In this document: in pieces, positions 9,708 through 45,017 of the stretch
Numbering within the stretch: position 1 is the first letter of the stretch
Layout of the letters: each line of letters begins with the position of its first letter
IMG/VR virus record: IMGVR_UViG_3300028800_000059
Coordinates: 113,319-177,318 of that record
Reading direction: 5' to 3' (one strand)
Length of the DNA stretch: 64,000 nt
DNA from: a virus
The notes under the pieces: model-generated
The model's database searches: none
What the model saw: only the letters and a program-made list of their open reading frames with translations
What the model was told of the DNA's origin: nothing
Translations under genes and position numbers: made by a program

Positions 9708-10798
9708 TATGCCGACTCCAATGCCAAGGCATCCGAATGAATTTTACGCATCAGAGATTTTAGTTTCTGTGGGTCTAATTCCGTCGGACAAGTTGCGTCA
9801 ATGGTTTCTTCCAATATTGTAACAATGTCTGATGATTTTTCGATCCCTTCTGTGGTGACTGAACCAGATGAATTTGAAGAAGGAGAATTATCAATATATT
9901 TTTCAACGATTGAAACATCGGCAACTCCAGCCTTGTATAGTGAATCTAAAAACACATCAAACCAATCGGGATGTTCCTTTTCGACAACCACAATTTTTAC
10001 GTAACAATTTTTAGTATAAGAAAAATCCAACTTATTCAAATTTTCCAATGTCTCTTTTCTGTCGTCATATACAATTTTGTGGAACATTCGATAGGGATTT
10101 TTGATGAACTGTAAATCCAATGTGTCGGTATCCAATACATGAAAGCCACGTGGATCATTCCAATCAGCCCAAGTAATCTCATAGGGATTTCCTAGATATG
10201 TGACAAGGCCATCCGTGGATCGATGATGAAAATGTCCACTTAGTACCATATCGAATTTATCAAACCATTTTCTTGGAGTAATTCCAGTGTGACAAAAATT
10301 TCCTTTGTCCATTTCGAAACCAGCTATTTCCAAATGTCCCATTACCAATCGCGCATCAGTTTCACGCAATAGCTTTTCAGTTTCTCCAATGTTTGTAGGA
10401 TTAACCCAAGGCAGCAAGATTGTTTTACGCCCATCCAGGTCTATCTCAACCGGGTCTGGATAAATTTTAACATTGGAATATTCAACGAAAATATCCTCAA
10501 TGGCATTAGGCGTATTGAATGTTTTCAAAGGACAGTCATGATTGCCTGGAATGTAGATACAATCCACTTCCATTTGTTTAAGTGGATTGCCAAATCTCTT
10601 GTGAATGGTATCCAAAATCTGGAGATTTATGAATTTGCGATGCTCGACAAAATCACCAAGGCAAGCCATTTGCTTTATGTTGTGATCCTTTAAGTAGGGA
10701 AAAAACACATTCTCATAAAACTTGAAAAAGAATTCATTGAAAATTGGCGAAGCCTGGCGCGCTCCAAAATGAAGATCGGTTATAATTGGAAGAAGCAT
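9707..10798 (-). CDS. gp47: recombination endonuclease nuclease subunit (Mre11/SbcD-like)
   Basis: TDLHFG, GDFV, GNHD, GHLE, SGHFH phosphoesterase motifs; adjacent to gp46. Confidence 0.97.
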   Translation of the reverse strand: MLLPIITDLHFGARQASPIFNEFFFKFYENVFFPYLKDHNIKQMACLGDFVEHRKFINLQILDTIHKRFGNPLKQMEVDCIYIPGNHDCPLKTFNTPNAIEDIFVEYSNVKIYPDPVEIDLDGRKTILLPWVNPTNIGETEKLLRETDARLVMGHLEIAGFEMDKGNFCHTGITPRKWFDKFDMVLSGHFHHRSTDGLVTYLGNPYEITWADWNDPRGFHVLDTDTLDLQFIKNPYRMFHKIVYDDRKETLENLNKLDFSYTKNCYVKIVVVEKEHPDWFDVFLDSLYKAGVADVSIVEKYIDNSPSSNSSGSVTTEGIEKSSDIVTILEETIDATCPTELDPQKLKSLMRKIHSDALALESA

Positions 10799-29440: not shown

Positions 29441-31354
29441 TTAGAATGTTCCGACAATTTCAGTGAAGGCAACACCTTGAGGCGAAGCCACGAAGTTCAA
29501 CTGAATACCACGGATGCTTTCGGCAGCCTTGATGTAGATATCACCGATGAAGTTCTTGGACTGGACAACAATTGGAGTGTTGTTTGTGTCGTCACATACA
29601 ACCAAGAAACTATTGATACCACCAAGCCCCTGGACCTGTCGTAGGAATGGATTGACAAGATTCAGGAAGGCATTCTGTGTTGCATGATTGTTGAATTTGA
29701 ATAGTGAGAACTTGGATGCCGAAGCAATCGCCTGTTCAAGAATGATGAACAAGAAACGAATACCAATGGCATTAAAGTCACTGTTTTCAGACAACATCGT
29801 TGTATCACCAAACAACATTGGTCCAAATCCAGGGAATGTAACGGCTGGATTTACACAGGCTGGGAACAACAAATCTCTGTCCACCTGGGATGGGTTCCAA
29901 GAAAGCTTCACAGCATTCTTGATGATACCGCGTTCATAGCCAGCACCTGGAGCCCATGGTGCTGTTGTGATTGCCGACTGAGCCTGGAGGCCAGCCGAGT
30001 CACCACAAAGAGGAATCCAACGATACACGTCATTGTATTTGTCATAGACATATTTCCATGAACTGTCCATGAAGCCATAAGAAGATGATGGCAACTGATT
30101 ACGATAAGCCAGGATTGCCGTATCTTCGTTTCCGGCGTTGTTGACAACATCGGAGAAGTTTGGTGAAATATAGGCCACGCAATCCTTTCGGACTTCGGCA
30201 ATATTTTCGATTAGATATTCGGCTATGTTCAAATCAGCATCGACGCCAATCAAGAAACGAACAGTCACATCATCTGTATTCAAGAAGTATGAATAGGCGG
30301 TTTCTTTATCGCCATCAGTCGAAGTGCCTTCAACACCACCAGATAGGCTTGCGTATTCTGGAACATTGATTTGTGTGAATGTATTTCCAGATGCCGACTG
30401 GCCCCAATTTGTGCCAGCAGAGTTGTTTTGCATCCAATAGGCATATTTTGATTTCTGGAACAGGACGTTTCTGTAGTAATTTGATGTTCCGTCCACATTC
30501 TTGGCATCAGATGCCAGAGATAGATATGGGAATACTTCTAACACTGTATTTGCGGTGCCGGTGAACTGACCACCTTGATCGACCACGATTACGTGAATTT
30601 GATCGTTTGCTCCGTTGACTTGGGAAGCAAAGCGTGAAGTGCCTGGCGCACCAGCAAAATATTTGGACCAAGCCCAACGGCGTTTTGCTGTATTGGCAAC
30701 CAAGGTTGCATTGATAATTGCGGTAGAGTTTACGGTAGCGTTAGAATTAGAACCGTTTGACTGGACTTTAATGACTAATGCTTCACCCAAGGTACCAACC
30801 TGTAGAAGGTCGCCTGGAGTTAGGGTTCCGACAACGTTTCCGCTGAAAGTAACTAGATTGCTTCCGGCTGTAGTATTAGCCGTAAGAGATAATGTATCGC
30901 TGAAGGCATTTGCCGAAGGACAAGATGAAACCAACAGAGAATTTCCAAGAGCGCCAGCATAACGAGCGGCATAATCACCAACCGAAGCACCACCAGCATA
31001 ATAGCTGGCTTCGTATGTGTCACGATTTGCGATATACAAACCAGAACCATCGGCGGTTGCGTTTTTGTAAATGGTATTTCCAGAGCGAACAACCCAAAGG
31101 GAACCTGAATAAGACAGGAACTGTGCGGCCGTCAAGAATGCCAAGTAGGCACTATCATTTGGCTTAAAGAAAGTGTTCACCAAACTTGTTGCTGATGCGT
31201 TTTCGGTATCAACCAAAACTCTCTTGTTGATTGGACCCCAACGGAATTGCCCAGCAATACCAGCGGCAATTGTAGGAACTGCCGGAATGGTTGTTGTTAG
31301 ATTGAATTCGTTGACCTTGACACCTGGCGAAAGGAAAAAAGGAATGTTTGCCAT
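29441..31354 (-). CDS. gp18: contractile tail sheath protein
   Basis: FLSPGVKVNE, GQFRWGP, FLSYSG.LWVVR, YKYVYDKYNDVYRWIPL, NVRRLF-equivalent GIRFLFIILE, IQLNFVA. Confidence 0.97.
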   Translation of the reverse strand: MANIPFFLSPGVKVNEFNLTTTIPAVPTIAAGIAGQFRWGPINKRVLVDTENASATSLVNTFFKPNDSAYLAFLTAAQFLSYSGSLWVVRSGNTIYKNATADGSGLYIANRDTYEASYYAGGASVGDYAARYAGALGNSLLVSSCPSANAFSDTLSLTANTTAGSNLVTFSGNVVGTLTPGDLLQVGTLGEALVIKVQSNGSNSNATVNSTAIINATLVANTAKRRWAWSKYFAGAPGTSRFASQVNGANDQIHVIVVDQGGQFTGTANTVLEVFPYLSLASDAKNVDGTSNYYRNVLFQKSKYAYWMQNNSAGTNWGQSASGNTFTQINVPEYASLSGGVEGTSTDGDKETAYSYFLNTDDVTVRFLIGVDADLNIAEYLIENIAEVRKDCVAYISPNFSDVVNNAGNEDTAILAYRNQLPSSSYGFMDSSWKYVYDKYNDVYRWIPLCGDSAGLQAQSAITTAPWAPGAGYERGIIKNAVKLSWNPSQVDRDLLFPACVNPAVTFPGFGPMLFGDTTMLSENSDFNAIGIRFLFIILEQAIASASKFSLFKFNNHATQNAFLNLVNPFLRQVQGLGGINSFLVVCDDTNNTPIVVQSKNFIGDIYIKAAESIRGIQLNFVASPQGVAFTEIVGTF

Positions 31355-31411
31355 GAGTTATATGCTCTCCTAGTTTTTATTGTTGCTGATTTTATTTAGA
31401 AAAAATAGGAG

Positions 31412-33151
31412 TTACGCTCGCAAGGCCCTATCAAAATCGAGGTCCCAGGAATCACCATCAAATGGGTAATACTGTCTTCGATGTTCCTGATATAATTCTT
31501 CTCTTTCTGTCTGGGCTTCTTCCTTTTCGCGTTCGGCGTCGTCCACTCCATCATCTACAACGAATGGAACAATGTCGTCATCTTCAAGATTGAGATATTC
31601 TTTTTGGAGAATTTCTCGAATATTCATATCCACGGCGTCTTTGAAATATCTCTGAGCCATTAGCCATGAAAAAATTACTAGGCCCATTACAAGATCATCA
31701 TGGTATCCCTGTTCGGCAGCAAACGATTCTTGACTGGCGATGAATGTGGTCATTTCCCCAATTGTCTGTGAATCATAAGTTACCAATTTATCCATTTCGA
31801 TCAAAGTTTTAAGGTTGGCACAACCAATTCTTTTAGTGGCCTTGGATTGTTTTAGACCGGTTTGCATCTTGCCTTTGGATTGATATCCCTGAGAAATTTG
31901 TTGTCCTAATTTTCCCTTTGCAGTAATTTTAATCAGATTTTCATAGGCAATATCAAAATGCAATAGATCACCAACTTGGAGGCCAATTGTCGAAATTTCT
32001 AAAAGCACATAGGCACTATTATATCGATTGGCGAACTCCCAAATGATTGTTGGAAACAACAGCGGCGATATATCATTTCGCCGGAATGTGGCCACTACTT
32101 CATATGGTAGATAAGTAACATCAATCATTTGAATAGTAGAATAGTCTTGACCCTGTCCTTCGGCCACGTCCACACAGGCAACATAGATATGCGGTCGTTG
32201 AACAAGTTTTCCGTCTTCGGTTCGTTTTTCGATGATAGGGTCTTTCCAATATCTGAAGCCGCCTTCTTCTCGAATAGGATTTCTTTCGACCATGTTTCGG
32301 AGTTTGCCGGCACTAATTAATGTATTACTCGATCCCAGGAAGGCCAAATTATGTTCCTGTTCGAACTTAACTGGTCCGAGAGTTTCGATTTGGTCGCGCA
32401 TCCATTTCTCGTCACGACCAGGAACTTCTGTCCAGTGAACGATAATAGGAACGAATCCGTTCTTACCAGCTTCGGCCGACTTCCACATTCGATAGAAGTG
32501 ATTCATGCCTTTTGGAGTAGAAGTGATAAAGATTTTTGTATTTTTACCTTGAGAAAGAGTAGGATAAACCGAAGTAAAGAAATCCTCGGCTAAATTATTT
32601 TGAATGTGAGCAAATTCGTCAAGATATAGAATGTTGATTGTGAAAGATCGTAGTGCGTCAACGGATGTTGCTGCTGAAACAAGTCGGCTACCGTTTTCCA
32701 ACCAGATGCTCATTTTGTTCCATTCTTGAACACCTTGTTGGAGCCACTTTGGAAGACTCATATAACAAAAGGCTGCCCGGTTCATCAATTCTTTGGCTGT
32801 ATCTTGTTTGTTGGCCATGATGGCTACTGTCTTTGTTTTGTGAAACAGAATATACCAAATGAAAAACGCTGCCACGACAGTTGTTTTACCAGATTGCCGA
32901 GCGGCCATGACAATTACTTTTCGGTTCTTGTGCATTCCATCTACAATTTTGCGCTGATATGGACGCAAAATACATGGAACTTTATTACCATCGGCGTCTA
33001 GAACGCTGACGTAAGTTTCAATAAAATAGATTGGGTCTTTTCGACACTTGATCCATTCACGTTTTTGATCGGGAGTGAACGCCATGGTCACTCCCACCTG
33101 TTTCAGAAATGGATTTTTTCTGAAAAAATCTTGCCGTGATAGATCGCCCAT
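31412..33151 (-). CDS. gp17: terminase large subunit
   Basis: ARQSGKTT, LYLDEFAHI, ITSTPKGMNHFY, VDVAEGQGQDYS, HDDLVM. Confidence 0.98.
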   Translation of the reverse strand: MGDLSRQDFFRKNPFLKQVGVTMAFTPDQKREWIKCRKDPIYFIETYVSVLDADGNKVPCILRPYQRKIVDGMHKNRKVIVMAARQSGKTTVVAAFFIWYILFHKTKTVAIMANKQDTAKELMNRAAFCYMSLPKWLQQGVQEWNKMSIWLENGSRLVSAATSVDALRSFTINILYLDEFAHIQNNLAEDFFTSVYPTLSQGKNTKIFITSTPKGMNHFYRMWKSAEAGKNGFVPIIVHWTEVPGRDEKWMRDQIETLGPVKFEQEHNLAFLGSSNTLISAGKLRNMVERNPIREEGGFRYWKDPIIEKRTEDGKLVQRPHIYVACVDVAEGQGQDYSTIQMIDVTYLPYEVVATFRRNDISPLLFPTIIWEFANRYNSAYVLLEISTIGLQVGDLLHFDIAYENLIKITAKGKLGQQISQGYQSKGKMQTGLKQSKATKRIGCANLKTLIEMDKLVTYDSQTIGEMTTFIASQESFAAEQGYHDDLVMGLVIFSWLMAQRYFKDAVDMNIREILQKEYLNLEDDDIVPFVVDDGVDDAEREKEEAQTEREELYQEHRRQYYPFDGDSWDLDFDRALRA

Positions 33152-33651
33152 TATTCTGCCTGTGGAATATTATTTGCCGTAGAAACCAACTCAGACTCTA
33201 CGTCAATAACTCCCAATTCTTCTTCCATTTTATCGAAAAATTGGGCGCTTGTGCCAGTGAATTCAATTTTTTCTACATTGAATTGTGTAATTGTTGCTGG
33301 TACAACTTCATTGTTTGATTTTGGTTCTGATCCTGGAACTGGCATTTGATCCATGAATTCGATTTCACGAATGTTTTTTTGAGTTTGAAGTAATTTTTCG
33401 GCAATTTCTCCAAGATTTTTTAGAAGTCCACTAGCTACTTCAAAAGCCCGTGGATGTTCGCTGTCTTCGGCAATGTCGATGGATTTTTCAAAGGCTGTTT
33501 GACCTAATTCTAATAGGTCGTGCATGGCCTTTCGAGCCTTTTGATAGTCTTCGGCTGTGTCGGCTTCAGAAGTATATTTAATAATTTTTTTGCTAACTTC
33601 TTCAATAGGAATAATATTATTGTTAGCATTTACTGATTCTAATAAAATCAT
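33151..33651 (-). CDS. gp16: terminase small subunit
   Basis: DYQKAR…LLE.G…A..SEHPRAFEVAS.L; start placed at 33651 (TAATG coupling, AAGGA SD). Confidence 0.9.
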   Translation of the reverse strand: MILLESVNANNNIIPIEEVSKKIIKYTSEADTAEDYQKARKAMHDLLELGQTAFEKSIDIAEDSEHPRAFEVASGLLKNLGEIAEKLLQTQKNIREIEFMDQMPVPGSEPKSNNEVVPATITQFNVEKIEFTGTSAQFFDKMEEELGVIDVESELVSTANNIPQAE

Positions 33652-33977
33652 TATATTTTCCTTATTCCTTTGTTCCAAGGAATTTGTCCTTGTTTTGATT
33701 TACTTATTTTCAATCGAGTTTCTATAGATTTTTTTCTTCCTTTCATTTCTTTTTTATCTATTTGTTTAGTCATTCCCAAATATGCAAGTTTATCGCCAAT
33801 TCTACTAAATGAATTCCACATCATATGATGACAGTCAATATGTTCCTGTTCGGTTAAATGAATAATATTAATGGGATGATTAATGCCTCGCCCAGTTTCA
33901 TCTAAGGCTTTTAAAGAACCATATCGACGTTTCCATTCATGTTTAGGAATGATATGGTGTTTTTGATTGTATATCAT
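33651..33977 (-). mobile_element. small HNH homing endonuclease (HHIIPKH family) with a NUMOD3-like tail
   Basis: HHIIPKH…NIIHLTEQEHIDCH; GRKKSIETRLKIS; PWNKG. Confidence 0.75.
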
Positions 33978-34222: not shown

Positions 34223-35242
34223 TTAAAGTTGAGGGTATTCAGTGATAGTTGTATGGTATCCATAGGAACTATTGGCATTGGCATTGGCTGGATCGGGTGT
34301 TACCACAATTCTACTCATTGGTGTAGGCACTTCTTCGGCAGTAAATACGATATAACCAGATGCATTTGATTCGGCTGACTTGATGACAACATTCGACAAG
34401 AAGTGTCCAGAAGAAACATTTGCCAATCTCAGATGCCCAAGATTGGCGTTCCATTCGGCTACTTCGCCTTGAACATAGGATTCATTTAATGTTCGACCTT
34501 GGTAAACAATTTCGCCTGTTTTAAAAGACCCAGTTCCAGTGTTTGCATAAAATTCCAAATCAACGAATTCATCGAACAATCCATAGGCATTATACATGGT
34601 CGTGGTGACGGTAGTAATTAATGGAGTATTAGCCACAGGTCCATAATAAGTAGCCTTCATTATGAAATTGAGGTCCCATTGGATCATACGAATTGTTTCA
34701 TATGGACCTTCATATTCAATATTTGTATCCATTCCTTGAAGTATCAGAGGAAAATTTTTCTTTCCAGCCTCACCCATTTCTGGCATGACGTTTATTGACA
34801 AGGTGTAATCTTGCCGAAAGAACGGGATGATTTGTTCAATTACTTGATAGGCATCATCGATGTTTCTGGCAAACAAAGATAGAGTGAATGATAAATCCCA
34901 CGGTGCGCCTGTGAACATGGATAGAAGATGATCCGAAGCACCACCAACGTTTGCCATTTTGTTTGTCATTTGCAGGGCGCGTTGTGGGTCATAATTCATT
35001 GATGGTTGATCATATGAAAGCTGTGGAAGGACCACTTCAACCTGACGCGATAGATTTGGGTCCTGTCTCAGCCGGGATAGATATTTTTCTTTAGGTCCGT
35101 AATTGATAGGAACGCGCACACGATAAAACTCATTCGATTTGTCTTTACTGGCTCTAACAATCGAGATATCTTTAAAGATTGAACCAAAGGCAGTAATAGC
35201 CTTTCGCGTTATTTGGTTATAAAATGGTTGATTTCCAAGAAT
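34223..35242 (-). CDS. gp15: tail sheath stabiliser / tail terminator
   Basis: VPINYGPKEKYL…LPQLS…YDPQR…PW…LS…IEQIIPFF; N-terminus extended to ATT-LGNQPFYNQITRKAITAFGSIFKDI, with an in-frame TAA 5 codons upstream. Confidence 0.9.
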   Translation of the reverse strand: MLGNQPFYNQITRKAITAFGSIFKDISIVRASKDKSNEFYRVRVPINYGPKEKYLSRLRQDPNLSRQVEVVLPQLSYDQPSMNYDPQRALQMTNKMANVGGASDHLLSMFTGAPWDLSFTLSLFARNIDDAYQVIEQIIPFFRQDYTLSINVMPEMGEAGKKNFPLILQGMDTNIEYEGPYETIRMIQWDLNFIMKATYYGPVANTPLITTVTTTMYNAYGLFDEFVDLEFYANTGTGSFKTGEIVYQGRTLNESYVQGEVAEWNANLGHLRLANVSSGHFLSNVVIKSAESNASGYIVFTAEEVPTPMSRIVVTPDPANANANSSYGYHTTITEYPQL

Positions 35243-35312: not shown

Positions 35313-35909
35313 ATGTCAGCTAACAATCATATTTATCATATCCATCATATCATACCCAAACATCGCTGGAAAGAACTCTATGGTTCTTTGGATGGCATTA
35401 ACGTGCCATGGAACACAATTCGATTAACTATATCCGAACATGCCGAATACCATAAAAAATTATGGAAAGAATTTGGTCGTTGGCAAGATGAATATGCGTG
35501 GAATTACTTATCTGGATTAATTGGTAAAGATTTGGTGTTAAAAGAAATATATAAGCAAAATGGTTTGAAGAGAATTGGTATAAAACAATCAGTAGAAACA
35601 CAAGATAAAAAACGAATTAAATTAAAAGGGATTCCCTTATCAAAGGAAACAAAAAAGAAAATGAGTGAGGCGGCTAAGAAACGTTGTCAAAATCCTTTGG
35701 AAAAGAAAAGATTGCAGAAAATGGCTAATAATTGGCTAGGCAAACATCATAAAACCGAAAGCAAAATAAAAATAAGTCAAGCCAATAAAGGACAAAATTT
35801 AGGTGGTAAATTATCTCAATCAACTAAAGATAAAATTCGTCAAAGCATGATTTTATTTGGTCAGAGAAAAAAAATTAATCGGGCGATCCAAATGGATTCA
35901 CTTCATTAA
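35313..35909 (+). mobile_element. HNH homing endonuclease with NUMOD3-like repeats, antisense between gp14 and gp15
   Basis: HIHHIIPKHRW…NTIRLTISEHAEYH; KGIPLSKETKKKMSE, GKHHKTESKIKIS repeats. Confidence 0.82.
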
Positions 35910-39098: not shown

Positions 39099-39905
39099 TT
39101 ACAAACTACTCACTTCAATTTGAAGGTTTGGCACTCCGCTGCCTGTACCATCGGCAGCTACAGTCATAAAGAGTGCTGAATTGGCATAAACTATAGGAAG
39201 TCCAGTTTTATCCAGTCCATGAACATCCGCCTCATGGTTAAATCTACAACGGCCTTGCCAGAGAGGTCGGAGGATCAGAACATTGAAAGTTCCTTGTGTT
39301 GCTACTGTTGATTGAATTGATTGTATAGATGATACTCCGTTATCTCCAGCTTGTAGTGGCATCCTAAACATTCGGCCAAGAGTGGGGGCAATTCCTGTTG
39401 CAATCACGCCAGTCTGTTGGCCGGCTACGCCTAGATCATTAGTATAACCAATATTACAGGATTGCAAACCAGTAAAGGCAGTTACGGTTTCTAACCAGAT
39501 TTGATTTCCTCGGCCAAAAGTATTAGGCGCGCTATAATCTGGCATTCGGCCTTCAAATGAAGGAGGACTAGTAATTGTATTGGATGTGGCGGCGTTGTAG
39601 GCCCCGGCCTTCCAAAGCATATCATAAAGATAAATTCTTCCAGAAACAGAAGAATTAAAATCTACAAGAGAAATATATCCAGTGGCTCTTGCACCAAATG
39701 GATCAATAGCTGGTGTTCCTGCTGTAGTATCATCAGGTACTACTCCAGCACTAGTATTCGACCCGGCTAAAGTACCAGGACCAGTACCAGCAAGATCAAT
39801 TAATGAAAATTGGATGCTCGCAACGGTAGTTCTTGCACCAGACTTAAAAAAATTGATTGATTGTTTTTGGGCATTAATATAATCACCAGTAGAAGTAATA
39901 GTCAT
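39099..39905 (-). CDS. putative virion structural protein, paralogue A
   Basis: colinear with 39918..40730 (YLYDM.WK.G.Y, GNQIWLETVTAFTGLQ, RMFRMPL.AGDNGVS, LRPLWQGR). Confidence 0.7.
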   Translation of the reverse strand: MTITSTGDYINAQKQSINFFKSGARTTVASIQFSLIDLAGTGPGTLAGSNTSAGVVPDDTTAGTPAIDPFGARATGYISLVDFNSSVSGRIYLYDMLWKAGAYNAATSNTITSPPSFEGRMPDYSAPNTFGRGNQIWLETVTAFTGLQSCNIGYTNDLGVAGQQTGVIATGIAPTLGRMFRMPLQAGDNGVSSIQSIQSTVATQGTFNVLILRPLWQGRCRFNHEADVHGLDKTGLPIVYANSALFMTVAADGTGSGVPNLQIEVSSL

Positions 39906-39917
39906 ATAGAAAGTCCT

Positions 39918-40730
39918 TTATTTATTTGCAAATTCTATTTGTAATTCTGGCACGCCACTGGAAGTCGAATCGGTTGATGTTGTGACAAATAATGCAGAAT
40001 TAGCATATACAATTGGAAGTCCGGTCTTATCAATGCCATGACAATCCCCACCATTAACAACAATAATTCTTCCTTGCCACAATGGCCGTAGAACCAAGAC
40101 ATTAAAGGTTCCTATTGTAGAAACATAACTTCTAACTGCTGTAATGTTAGAAACTCCGTTATCTCCAGCGGCCAATGGCATCCTAAACATACGATTAATA
40201 CCAGGTGCTACGCCTGTTGCTACGTTTCCTGTAAACTGTCCAGCCGTTCCTTGAGCATTAGTATAACTGATGTTGGCAGTTTGCAAACCAGTAAAGGCTG
40301 TAACAGTTTCTAACCAGATTTGATTTCCCATACCATATGCTAATGGGGTCGAAGGATTAAAATCTGGCATTCGGCCTGAATACGATGGTGGATTAACTGT
40401 TACAACAGAGTTGAAATTATAAGGTCCACCTTTCCAGACCATATCATAAAGATAAAGTCGGCCGGCTACTGTGGAAGCAAAATCAACCGTAGAAAGATAT
40501 CCAGTTGATCCTGTATTGAAAGAGTAAATATTTGGAGTACCTGCCGTATTCGCATCAGGAATTACACCAATCGAGGTATTGGAACCACCAAGCACGCCGC
40601 TACCCGGGCTACCCAAAAGATTGAATAAAGAAAATTGAATGCCGGCTACAGTTGTTATGCTATTGCTTTTAAAATAAGTAAGAACTTGTTTTGTGGATGC
40701 AATATAATCGTCAAGAGAGGCAATCGTCAT
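39918..40730 (-). CDS. putative virion structural protein, paralogue B
   Basis: tandem paralogue of 39099..39905. Confidence 0.7.
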   Translation of the reverse strand: MTIASLDDYIASTKQVLTYFKSNSITTVAGIQFSLFNLLGSPGSGVLGGSNTSIGVIPDANTAGTPNIYSFNTGSTGYLSTVDFASTVAGRLYLYDMVWKGGPYNFNSVVTVNPPSYSGRMPDFNPSTPLAYGMGNQIWLETVTAFTGLQTANISYTNAQGTAGQFTGNVATGVAPGINRMFRMPLAAGDNGVSNITAVRSYVSTIGTFNVLVLRPLWQGRIIVVNGGDCHGIDKTGLPIVYANSALFVTTSTDSTSSGVPELQIEFANK

Positions 40731-41340: not shown

Positions 41341-42099
41341 TTAATCGAATTTTTCTGCTAATACTGGATTTGGTATTTTTTCAGATTTAGCAAACAATCC
41401 TTTTTTCTTTTTCGTTGGCAAAGAGGCCTTTAATGCTTCTTGCACAGTAATATAATCTGCCGCGGCCTTAATTAGTTGCTGATCTTTTGCTTGAATATCT
41501 AGTGTCAATATTTCATTTTTATTTTGTGCATCAATAAGATTGGATTGAAGAATTTTAACCTGTGCTTCCAAATTAATGATATTGTCGGCACTGTCTTGAC
41601 GTTCTTTATTATTTCTTCGAATTTCATTTTCAAGTTCGGTGATCTTGTTTCCAAATTGAGTTTCTAAGGTTGTTTTTTCCTGATTATTCCGACGGATTTC
41701 ATTTTCAAGTTCGGTGATCTTGTTTCCATTTTGAGTTTCTATATGCGAAATTCTTTCTTCGTGTTGTCTTTTTAATTTTCCAAGATCATGTTTATAATTA
41801 TCGCTGGCATTTGTTTTATTTTTTTCTGTGGTTTGCTGAAATTCTTCTATTTTTTGCACAGCCGATTTCAAGGCATTATTCAAACCATCATTTTGTGTTT
41901 TGAAATGAAGAATTGTTTTTTCAAATACTTTTTGGTTGACTTCTTGAATAAGAAGTTCATGTGTCAATCCAGTAATTCTATTTTTTAAGGACTCGACATA
42001 TGTATTCAAATAATCTCTTTGAATATCATTTGTATTAATGGTAGTAATAGGTTGATCTTCGGCTGACGTAGTAGCGGGTGCAAAATCGTCGTCACTCAT
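41341..42099 (-). CDS. coiled-coil protein with an internal tandem repeat
   Basis: heptad-like E/K/Q/L composition; GNKITELENEIRRNN occurs twice; late promoter TATAAATA at 42143-42150. Confidence 0.7.
   Translation of the reverse strand: MSDDDFAPATTSAEDQPITTINTNDIQRDYLNTYVESLKNRITGLTHELLIQEVNQKVFEKTILHFKTQNDGLNNALKSAVQKIEEFQQTTEKNKTNASDNYKHDLGKLKRQHEERISHIETQNGNKITELENEIRRNNQEKTTLETQFGNKITELENEIRRNNKERQDSADNIINLEAQVKILQSNLIDAQNKNEILTLDIQAKDQQLIKAAADYITVQEALKASLPTKKKKGLFAKSEKIPNPVLAEKFD
41621..41728. repeat. 33-bp perfect direct repeat with a 75-nt period
   Basis: ATTTCATTTTCAAGTTCGGTGATCTTGTTTCCA at 41621-41653 and 41696-41728. Confidence 0.9.
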
Positions 42100-42159: not shown

Positions 42160-43947
42160 TTAGAACGTCCCACAATCAACCATGCCGAAGGCTGGATTTC
42201 CATTAACGTCTATTTGGAATAATGTTCCTTGTGCACCAAGTTGGGCTTCAACAAAGGCGGCTGTTGTGCTACCCAATAGAATTGTGTTAGAACCAAATGT
42301 CTGTTTACCAGTACCGCCTTGACCAACACCAAGTCCCGAATCAAATATCACGTTACCAGTGGCGCGTAGTGTGCCTGATACATGTAATGTGGAGGTTGGA
42401 GCGATGATGTTGATACCGACGTTACCAGCAGGATCAATACGGACACGTTCTAGCGCGACGTTGGCTGCCAATGCACTTGTTAAGAAGCGAATATAAGTGC
42501 CCTTGTTTACATCGGTGAATGCCTGAGCCGCAGCAAATTCAATGGCTGCCAGAGTGTTTGCATCATATGTAGTTGTACCAAATCCAAATCCTCGAATAGA
42601 CAAAAGTTTATCGTCGGTTGCGAGAGCCAGAGGAATTGCAATATTACCGTCGGCACGTCTTGCGCTAATTACTGGTGCGCCAGCAAACCCATCAATTAAC
42701 ATGCCAGCCTGTGAACCATTTTGTCCAATGATATGGACGTTAGTGTTGGTTGAAGTAAGAGGACCTGTACCAGTGTTTGGTACGGCAACAGAATTTGTGT
42801 TGGCATCAACAGTAAATAGTGCATCCATTAAGTTGGTGCCTACACCAACTCGTCCACCTATGTTATCGACAACTAGAAGCGATGCCGTTCCTAAGCTGAC
42901 GTTAGATAGAGATTGGAATATACCATTAGATAGGAATGTTCCTTTGGTGTTTGCAATTTCAGTGGAGATGCCGCGAGTAGTAAATGTAATTTCCCCACCT
43001 TGCGAACGGAAGAATCCTACGTTTGCTTCGTTAGTAAAGGTGAAAGATGGTGCCGCTAAGTTTCCGTCGGCAACAAACAATCTACCCCATTGAGAATCGC
43101 CATCGGTGCCTGCCCATACGCCAGCAGCATTACCGGCATCCGGAAGAAACTTAAATCTATGTGTGGTATTGGACCAACCAAAGAAACCTGTGTTTTGTGT
43201 GTTGGCTTGTTGACCACCAAAGCCACCGTTGTACCACATGAAGGCAATACCGCGATCAAATCCATCGTTAGTTGCCAAATTAGCACTTGGACCAGCACCC
43301 AATGTAAGAATTGGGTCCTCAACAGTAACAGTGTTTGCATTAACTGTTATGAAGGCTCCAGCAACAGTCAAATTACCATTAAGAGTTATGTCCGACGTGA
43401 ATGTTTTTGCTCCGCCAATTGTTTGCACGCCTGTTGTTCTAACAACGGTTGAGTCAACGTTAAGAGTGCCGCCATTGGCAGTGCTGAGCCCGTCACCCAC
43501 GTTAATAGAAATAGTGGCTGCCGAGCCTAATCCAATAGCCGCAAGATTGGTGCTAAGGCCAGTGCCTGTATTAATTTGAATTGTAGAATTTTGAAGTTTG
43601 GCGTTGGTTACGGAACCATCAGACAGAGTGATTGTTCCTGTTACGTTACCAAAAATAACATTGAAGCTGGCCGAACCATTTGCGTCACGTCTGACGATTC
43701 TTCCAGCAGTCGCCGCATCAGTGGCATTATCTAATTGTAAAGTATAGAAACGGCCGCCGACATTGATGGCAGAGTTGCCAGCCGAGGCACCAGAGACACC
43801 AAATTGCGGTCCTAAGAAAAGAACATCTGAGCCGGTGCCGTGGGCATTCGAACCATAAGAATAGGCTAATTCAGCGACGTTTAATGTATTGGCGCCTGGA
43901 ACGCCTGTGGTATTAGAACGACGGATGGATACAACAGTATTAGACAT
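42160..43947 (-). CDS. tail fibre-like protein
   Basis: IRRSNTTGVP…L..AELAYSYG N-terminus; TVNANTVTVEDPILTLG; GNVGIN..APTSTLHVSG repeats; DCGTF end. Confidence 0.75.
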   Translation of the reverse strand: MSNTVVSIRRSNTTGVPGANTLNVAELAYSYGSNAHGTGSDVLFLGPQFGVSGASAGNSAINVGGRFYTLQLDNATDAATAGRIVRRDANGSASFNVIFGNVTGTITLSDGSVTNAKLQNSTIQINTGTGLSTNLAAIGLGSAATISINVGDGLSTANGGTLNVDSTVVRTTGVQTIGGAKTFTSDITLNGNLTVAGAFITVNANTVTVEDPILTLGAGPSANLATNDGFDRGIAFMWYNGGFGGQQANTQNTGFFGWSNTTHRFKFLPDAGNAAGVWAGTDGDSQWGRLFVADGNLAAPSFTFTNEANVGFFRSQGGEITFTTRGISTEIANTKGTFLSNGIFQSLSNVSLGTASLLVVDNIGGRVGVGTNLMDALFTVDANTNSVAVPNTGTGPLTSTNTNVHIIGQNGSQAGMLIDGFAGAPVISARRADGNIAIPLALATDDKLLSIRGFGFGTTTYDANTLAAIEFAAAQAFTDVNKGTYIRFLTSALAANVALERVRIDPAGNVGINIIAPTSTLHVSGTLRATGNVIFDSGLGVGQGGTGKQTFGSNTILLGSTTAAFVEAQLGAQGTLFQIDVNGNPAFGMVDCGTF

Positions 43948-43967
43948 TTTTTATTATTCCTTTTTTT

Positions 43968-44012
43968 TTAGAAGGTTCCGCCGTTTATTGATTGTTCGGC
44001 TGTGTATTTAGC
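43968..44012 (-). pseudogene. orphaned duplicate of the last 14 codons + stop of the 44425..44667 gene
   Basis: reads AKYTAEQSINGGTF* versus AKYTAEDMINGGTF* at 44425-44469. Confidence 0.85.
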
Positions 44013-44019
44013 CTAAATA
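44005..44019. promoter_or_regulatory. back-to-back divergent late-promoter variants
   Basis: perfect inverted repeat TATTTAG-C-CTAAATA; CTAAATA is the variant found before several late genes here. Confidence 0.55.
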
Positions 44020-44027
44020 AATCCTCA

Positions 44028-44444
44028 ATGTCTGTATTTCATATTCACCATATCATACCCAAACATCGTTGGAAAGAATTACATGGTTCTCTTGAAGGCA
44101 TAAATGTACCATGGAACATTATTAGACTTACTGTTCCTGAACACGCCGAATATCATAGAAGATTATGGGAGGAATGGGGTAGATGGCAGGATGAACTAGC
44201 ATGGAAAACTCTTACTGGACAAATTACAAACGCTGAGTCTATTAAAGAGGCACAGAGACGAGGCCAATTAGGAAAACCTAAATCAGAAGAGACTAAAAAA
44301 AGAATGAGTATAGCTTTAACAAATCCATCCGAAGAAACTCGTAGCAAAATGAGAGACGCTAAAAGAAATTATGTGCCGTGGAATAAAGGGAAAAAAACAA
44401 ATTTAATTCCTTGGAATAAAGGAATTAAAACGTCCCTCCGTTAA
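44028..44444 (+). mobile_element. HNH homing endonuclease (paralogue of 35313..35909), antisense insertion
   Basis: HIHHIIPKHRW…NIIRLTVPEHAEYH; GKPKSEETKKRMS; PWNKG twice; start placed at the ATG at 44028. Confidence 0.82.
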
Positions 44445-44667
44445 TCATGTCTTCTGCCGTATACTTTGCTGTGTTGGCATCGTAAATTATAGGCGACCCA
44501 TCTTCTACGGCCGACACATCAACATCTGTCAAGTCAGAAAATTTTGTGGCTCCAGCACCAGAACTGCTGCCACCTCCAGGAAATGAAACTCCAACTGTAG
44601 GAGCCGATCCTGATTGAACAGTGGCATTTGTAAGGCCCTTGGTTATTACGGTGACTTTGATTCCCAT
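44425..44667 (-). CDS. small virion-associated protein
   Basis: FSDLTDVDVSAVEDGSPIIYD…INGGTF end; CTAAATA late promoter 8 nt upstream. Confidence 0.7.
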   Translation of the reverse strand: MGIKVTVITKGLTNATVQSGSAPTVGVSFPGGGSSSGAGATKFSDLTDVDVSAVEDGSPIIYDANTAKYTAEDMINGGTF

Positions 44668-44678
44668 GATAAGGGTAT

Positions 44679-45017
44679 TTAGACTGTCACTTGGCCGTCG
44701 TTGGTAATAATACCTTCAATCACTCGGGTTTTAATATTGGCCGGTGAATTTAATTTCACATCGAAATAATATCGTCCTGGTTTAATATTTGCGGAATTAG
44801 CTGACGTGAGCGCCATCTGTAAATTTCCATTTGGAGCATCACTAAAGGAACATTGAAAATAGAAACTGGCATTGGCCTGGGCAATAGATGCTTTGGCGGC
44901 TGAATTGGCTGTGTAACCAACCAAATTCATAGGATTGCCTGTAGCATCATCTGTTAGAACAATGCTTGCATTAAAATCTGTTCCTTGATCTAATAGGAGT
45001 TCTACCCAACCTGCCAT
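44679..45017 (-). CDS. conserved virion structural protein (DQGTDF family)
   Basis: ELLLDQGTDF…NL.GYT…IKPGRYYFDV…TRVIEGII. Confidence 0.75.
   Translation of the reverse strand: MAGWVELLLDQGTDFNASIVLTDDATGNPMNLVGYTANSAAKASIAQANASFYFQCSFSDAPNGNLQMALTSANSANIKPGRYYFDVKLNSPANIKTRVIEGIITNDGQVTV

Follow-up and report, generated by a model that had tools for sequence, protein, structure and literature searches.

The window, a 64,000-nucleotide stretch of viral DNA, covers the structural region of a T4-like phage, with genes for a large terminase, a gp14-like head-closure protein, a gp15-like sheath stabiliser and a 112-aa fibre-assembly-like protein. Between the latter and a tail-fibre gene, a small gene encoding an 80-aa protein is interrupted close to its 3' end by an HNH gene, beyond which a second version of the same gene end is found. 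The features of this region, in the direction of transcription of the small gene, are the following:

44679..45017, minus strand: fibre-assembly-like gene, 112 aa, the conserved upstream neighbour (PHROG 3304/1084; synteny)
44470..44667, minus strand: body of the small gene, codons 1-66 of the 80-aa reading frame (ORF list; PHROG 13853)
44425..44469, minus strand: functional 3' end, AKYTAEDMINGGTF + TAA, in frame with the body
44028..44444, plus strand: HNH/NUMOD3 gene, 138 aa, free-standing and convergent with the interrupted gene
44013..44019, plus strand: CTAAATA before the HNH gene, 8 nt 5' of the HNH ATG
43968..44012, minus strand: orphan 3' end, AKYTAEQSINGGTF + TAA, untranslatable and probably the native end
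44005..44011, minus strand: CTAAATA within the orphan (codons GCT AAA TAC), 57 nt 5' of the fibre ATG
43948..43967, minus strand: 20-nt A-rich spacer with AAGGAA, before the fibre start
42160..43947, minus strand: tail-fibre gene, 595 aa, with the C-terminus CGTF (BppL_N; PHROG 697; synteny)

The initial annotation had described the HNH gene as an element that carries a replacement for the end of the gene it interrupts, and both gene ends read exactly as it had claimed. The 80-aa gene (44425..44667, minus strand) closes with GCA AAG TAT ACG GCA GAA GAC ATG ATT AAC GGA GGG ACG TTT TAA, and the orphan (43968..44012, minus strand) consists of GCT AAA TAC ACA GCC GAA CAA TCA ATA AAC GGC GGA ACC TTC TAA. 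The orphan has no start codon, and the similarity between the two copies indeed stops at an in-frame TAG directly upstream of it, which is provided by the complement of the CTAAATA at 44013..44019. The HNH gene starts with an ATG at 44028, and its stop codon (44442..44444, plus strand) was correctly placed inside the functional copy on the opposite strand, giving an overlap of 20 nt with the functional gene end. On the other side, the fibre ATG (43947) follows 20 nt past the orphan stop.

The product of the inserted gene matches NUMOD3 (E 7.6e-8, 32.6 bits versus a cut-off of 20.4), and the tblastn matches of the gene are cyanophage and T4-like genes annotated 'homing endonuclease'. Its HH...N...H...H pattern is made up of residues H7, H8, N30, H39 and H43, all of which are invariant in a 10-sequence alignment. 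The protein has no match to a Pfam HNH model, reaches PHROG 12434 at only E 5.5e-4 and found no match in a sequence search of the PDB. At the level of structure, colicin and pyocin HNH DNases lead the Foldseek matches of residues 1-52, albeit weakly (E 0.45-9), and the highest score obtained via a wide fold search, again a weak one, was that of the GVE2 HNH endonuclease (Z 3.7, rmsd 2.0 over 45 residues). The GC content of the gene (0.365) lies below that of its flanks (0.42-0.47). With 138 aa, as compared to 172-198 aa in its relatives, the protein is 35-60 residues shorter and lacks their C-terminal module, so that it may be decayed, weakened or inactive.

The genome contains two HNH paralogues as well as a further relative at genome positions 10091-10243 that matches the NUMOD3 region only. 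One of the paralogues (35313..35909, plus strand; 198 aa, 56% identity) is situated between the gp14-like gene (34226..35242, minus strand) and the gp15-like gene. It is likewise convergent with its neighbour, overlapping the 3' end of the gp14-like gene by 35 nt, and no orphan of the neighbour's end was found there. Since it starts 70 nt upstream of the proposed ATT start of the gp15-like gene, its insertion may have displaced the normal start. The second, an HNH/NUMOD3 paralogue of 108 aa (33651..33977, minus strand), ends in IPWNKGIRKI like the 138-aa protein and overlaps the start of a 175-aa gene at 33151..33678.

Two ends of one gene and their relatives

At the protein level, the functional end and the orphan agree in 12 of 14 residues, and at the DNA level in 30 of 45 bases. 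Of the 12 codons for shared residues, ten differ, always in the third base alone, a count on which we agree with the initial annotation. In total, 15 of the 42 coding positions differ, with 2, 1 and 12 differences at codon positions 1, 2 and 3, respectively, and the longest run common to both ends measures 5 nt. In a six-frame translation of the whole 177,318-bp genome, the terminal 14-mer is matched at 8 or more of 14 residues only at these two gene ends, the next best match being 7/14. When the genome was scanned for duplicated peptides (at least 10 of 12 residues, copies within 2 kb), the only other matches were tandem repeats within genes and one pair of paralogues of 819 nt; the scan thus yielded no second orphan end in this phage, and the two gene ends have the lowest DNA identity among all of its matches. 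The 819-nt pair consists of tandem paralogous genes (window 39159..40337) with a DNA identity of 67-86%, and a 75-nt tandem repeat lies inside a 252-aa coiled-coil gene downstream of the fibre gene (41599..41743).

This pattern of differences is not that of random change. Simulations that scattered 15 substitutions at random over the 42 nt left at most 10/14 residues intact, and 12 of 14 was not attained once in 200,000 trials. Both gene ends show purifying selection: in view of these trials and of the spread of the differences over the codon positions, the two copies diverged while being translated, in separate lineages, and one of them must have arrived laterally. The initial annotation went further and called the replacement "synonymously recoded", which overstates the case. 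Ten differing codons among 12 compare with 6.8 expected at synonymous saturation (P=0.043), and seven of the ten fall on other signals, three of them on the CTAAATA of the orphan and four on the overlap with the HNH tail. Given this marginal excess and the coincidence with other signals, selected recoding is not needed, and a diverged donor allele would explain the codon pattern without it. Codon usage and GC3 were considered as a test of origin and rejected, because copies of 14 codons are too short to be assigned to a source.

The 80-aa protein belongs to a small family (PHROG 13853). Its relatives P0002, P0003, L011, L015 and L016 share the pattern MG/AxKVTV...LTDVD...YD..T.KY...NGGTF, followed directly by the stop codon; all members of the family end in NGGTF or a close variant thereof, and the functional end keeps NGGTF. 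In eight HEG-less loci from several lineages, the gene order is 112-aa gene, small gene and fibre gene (the syntenic 112-aa homologue being present in both L015 and L016), with the fibre ATG located 0-62 nt past the small-gene stop and an endonuclease in none, so that the presence of the HNH gene at this site is sporadic. The orphan, at 20 nt from the fibre ATG, lies where the native ends lie in these loci and thus occupies the native end's place. The relatives of the small protein have amino acid identities of 33-43%, too low to distinguish between the two versions of the gene end, and they match the orphan in position. Closer ones did not come to light: blastn and tblastn searches against 50,697 phage records returned nothing for the region or the 80-aa protein, a scan of viral contigs with the single 80-aa protein gave no match, a search of 5.8 billion proteins retrieved only two relatives (40-43% identity), and a metagenome scan found distant relatives.

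Beyond the small gene family, a similar terminal motif recurs in the fibre module of this phage, with NGGTF at the end of the 80-aa protein, CGTF at that of the fibre (42160..43947) and VGTF at that of a 638-aa ORF (29441..31357). The fibres of relatives (L001, L012, L015, L016) end in GGTF, AGTF or GGTY. Judged by these sequences, the GTF-type ends of fibre-module proteins look like a common terminal tag. In the zero-gap loci among L011, L012, L015 and L016, the ribosome-binding site of the fibre gene, a GGAGG at 9-10 nt from its ATG, is contained in the N-G-G codons AAC GGA GGA; the window has its 20-nt spacer with AAGGAA instead.

A search for peptide duplications, which the initial annotation had suggested for the flanks of HNH genes, brought up one more case. 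Among 59 loci with relatives of the HNH gene whose flanks were screened for orphan gene ends, L071 is the only one with the same architecture as the window. Another candidate, L053, was rejected, as it consists of two tandem GIY-YIG genes, and a scan of the T4 genome found no orphan ends flanking endonuclease genes. The element in L071 (2474..3604, equal to L089) is a GIY-YIG/NUMOD3/NUMOD1 gene according to Pfam and is independent of the HNH element. It shares 8 nt with the 3' end of a gene for a 395-aa NAD-binding oxidase-like protein, and the orphan, corresponding to the last 36 codons, is found 1020 nt downstream, before a fibre gene. Compared with the translated end, 33-34 of its 36 residues are the same and 17 of 108 coding bases differ; the observed residue identity was reached in none of 100,000 random trials, and there are only 9 synonymous differences in the 36 codons.

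L071 has two HEG-less relatives, L090 and L091. L091 possesses a single contiguous end that is identical to the L071 orphan at 107 of 111 positions, with 98.3% identity over the next 300 nt, whereas the translated copy of L071 agrees with it at only 98/111. The initial annotation had predicted an empty-site relative with one contiguous end of the orphan type, and L091 is such a relative, for a second and unrelated element. Between 640 and 131 nt before the stop, the body of the L071 gene is of the L091 type, and informative sites place a switch of allele at 130 nt, which is 20-35 nt upstream of the orphan boundary and marks a short conversion tract. The end of L090, in turn, is identical to the translated copy of L071 at 103/111 positions. 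As L090 is HEG-less yet nearer to the translated copy, alleles of this kind circulate without an endonuclease, too. For an experimental test of the model outlined below, L071 offers the best starting point.

A model of one-sided invasion and its alternatives

We consider it probable that the locus arose by a one-sided, break-induced invasion in which a free-standing homing endonuclease brought along the gene end of its donor, with the orphan representing the native end. In the donor phage, the HNH gene would have been located just downstream of a diverged allele of the small gene, in convergent orientation and with overlapping 3' ends, an arrangement that a donor could carry intact and that is also seen at the paralogue next to the gp14-like gene. 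The HNH enzyme would then break an HNH-less allele near codon 66/67, 14 codons before the stop. Repair would invade on the side of the gene body and copy from the donor both the gene end (14 codons plus stop) and the HNH gene together with its own late promoter. The other side, formed by the hypervariable fibre gene, would offer no homology, leading to illegitimate joining to the broken end. As an outcome, the body would be translated with the donor end, followed by the HNH gene, and the recipient's last 14 codons would be left as an untranslated orphan beside the fibre gene. The former target would thereby be split, with the remaining half differing at 15 of 42 positions. Immunity of the resident allele to the HNH enzyme is plausible.

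Several features of the window bear on this model. The point at which the HNH promoter meets AKYT falls within coding sequence and must therefore be an illegitimate join; break repair of this one-sided, illegitimate kind has been documented for homing in T4, in a review on T4 mobile elements (PMC2988022). The low GC content of the HNH gene and its having relatives elsewhere in the genome, as T4-like homing endonucleases do, fit the model as well. Since the two gene ends have no run of more than 5 nt in common, recombination between them cannot excise the HNH gene. Counting against the model are the saturated synonymous divergence of the donor allele, which would render homologous invasion inefficient, the distance of the available relatives, the shortened and perhaps inactive HNH protein with its weak fold matches, and the end of L090, which is close to the translated copy of L071 in a locus free of an endonuclease. 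The make-up of the locus, the signature of selection and the usual empty arrangement in relatives are shown, as is the scenario as a whole in L071. For the window, we infer which copy was imported, where cleavage takes place, that the enzyme is active and any role of the orphan promoter; the assignment of the imported copy is based on the position of the orphan, the nature of the two junctions (one necessarily illegitimate, the other a natural convergent overlap) and the analogy with L071. What we retain of the intron-free insertion strategy put forward in the initial annotation is the substitute 3' end and the stranded native end, on the strength of the eight HEG-less loci, the selection on both ends, the lack of a match to any intron model and the second case in L071; its recoding component goes too far.

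The same architecture could also have been produced from the other side, if the functional end and the HNH gene were native and a new fibre gene had been imported in a host-range exchange, together with the last 14 codons of the donor's small gene, and joined illegitimately beside the HNH promoter. An A-X-A' arrangement is symmetric, hence the sequence alone cannot tell which copy arrived. Moreover, fibre genes are often exchanged, the small gene always adjoins the fibre gene, and a break induced by the HNH enzyme could stimulate such an exchange. We nevertheless regard this scenario as unlikely, because in L071 the fibre start goes with the orphan and the gene body in a single, L091-like lineage, the translated end and the endonuclease gene being the only foreign parts.

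Even less probable, in our view, is a duplication of the 45-bp end in situ, followed by selected synonymous recoding of the translated copy against cleavage or repeat excision. The number of differing codons, marginally above the expectation at saturation, and the short longest common run would fit such a process. However, an untranslated orphan should decay at all codon positions, whereas the differences are concentrated at the third, and seven of the ten differing codons lie on the promoter motif or in the overlapping HNH tail. L071 speaks against it as well, given its few synonymous differences and the match of its orphan to an empty-site relative. Finally, a self-splicing intron with the orphan as its second exon, or a chance or paralogous occurrence of the GGTF motif, is hardly credible: although HNH genes are common in phage group I introns and several fibre-module proteins here end in GTF, Rfam returned no family match for either strand of 43500..45000 at E <=1, the HNH ORF runs antisense to the gene in which it sits, a full-length protein with the family terminus is obtained without any splicing, and the 12/14 match is unique in the genome.

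The CTAAATA motif at the junction

CTAAATA has been published as the late-promoter consensus of Aeh1, a T4-like phage (PMC1524935). The genome contains 30 copies, 25 of them on the coding-rich minus strand. Of 212 crude genes, 13 (6.1%) have the motif within the 60 nt upstream of them, as opposed to 0.2% of intragenic controls, corresponding to a 30-fold enrichment. In the window, nine of the ten copies are followed by a called gene start at a distance of 0-57 nt, and the remaining one (3824) lies 7 nt before an ATG. By these measures, CTAAATA does behave as a late-promoter motif would in this genome. The geometry seen at the HNH gene, CTAAATA-N7-8-ATG, is also found at four window genes (starts 44667 and 45017; motifs 59873 and 3824). 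Six of the ten copies in the window (44676, 45025, 59873, 63977, 3824, 44013) are only 0-8 nt away from the ATG, and such close copies often contain the TAA stop of the upstream gene. With a start-site spacing as in T4, the late mRNAs of these genes would be almost leaderless.

At the insertion, re-reading of the motif positions bears out what had been described: the orphan keeps a CTAAATA, the functional copy is without one (GCA AAG TAT instead), and the motifs of the orphan and the HNH gene stand back to back, forming a palindrome, TATTTAG-C-CTAAATA, with the junction base 44012 in its middle. Going by the codon usage of the genome, no more than about 3% of AKY encodings contain CTAAATA, and that of the orphan uses the rare TAC. 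In the HEG-less loci L015 and L016, CTAAATA was not found in the small-gene end, so that promoter rescue for the fibre gene by the CTAAATA of the orphan is possible. It is also conceivable, if quite doubtful, that the orphan is maintained as an operator, with a split homing site and divergent late promoters that would serve self-repression of the HNH gene and gating of the fibre gene. If so, an essential host-range gene would be tied to a selfish element, and the element would be hard to lose.

Comparison with known systems

The prevailing view confines phage homing endonucleases to intergenic sites, to introns and inteins, and to genes that remain functional when split. A spare gene end would represent a fourth route by which endonucleases can enter essential coding sequence. 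Such a route would move short foreign gene segments between distantly related phages and leave a datable scar. As the orphan boundary predicts the cleavage site, the target, immunity and co-conversion are directly testable with a small enzyme. Both cases, the window and L071, adjoin tail-fibre genes and lack homology on one side, which suggests when the route is used and would link selfish nucleases to the shuffling of host-range modules.

The free-standing seg and mob homing endonucleases of T4, known for intronless homing and marker exclusion, resemble the HNH element in that a small HNH/NUMOD3 gene sits between conserved genes, has several paralogues and carries a late-type promoter. Promoters for downstream genes that are embedded in or located beside a mobile element are also mentioned in the review on the T4 elements (PMC2988022). 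In contrast to the window, the elements covered there lie between genes or split them, as does mobE in Aeh1 nrdA or mobA in gene 60, with no spare end (PMC2988022). Duplicated gene ends are not described in this review, and the string 'duplicat' is absent (PMC2988022). Within the open-access literature searched, we found no description of a spare-gene-end layout in a phage. A further parallel is the mimicry between operator and homing site in I-TevI, inasmuch as what is left of the presumed homing site in the window lies directly next to the late promoter of the endonuclease gene itself. Unlike in I-TevI, this remnant would be a physical leftover of the target, and autorepression is speculative.

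The closest likeness is found in fungal mitochondria, where, as the initial annotation had pointed out, the replacement of C-termini by endonuclease elements has been described (PMC3630166; PMC6279837). The mORF 'gene hybrids' comprise atp6 of Allomyces macrogynus and atp6, atp9, cox2 and nad3 of Glomus (PMC3630166), and C-terminal duplications of cob and atp6 are known from Endoconidiophora (PMC6279837). The element in the window differs from them in residing in a T4-like phage rather than an organelle and in encoding an HNH rather than a LAGLIDADG or GIY-YIG enzyme. Moreover, its gene lies on the opposite strand, convergent with and overlapping the gene end, whereas a mORF is in phase with its host gene. 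Also distinct are the late-promoter-like motif that the HNH gene has of its own and the orphan, which measures only 14 codons and contains a promoter-like motif for the next gene. Shared by both systems is the order of an inserted foreign C-terminus, an endonuclease ORF and the native C-terminus downstream, together with an inserted end that has diverged in its DNA (64-81% identity there, 67% here) while its protein sequence is conserved. In the fungal hybrids, the native end matches that of ORF-less relatives and the inserted end is the diverged one (PMC3630166; PMC6279837), a correspondence that we find here for L071 only, whose orphan closely matches the end of its HEG-less relative L091.
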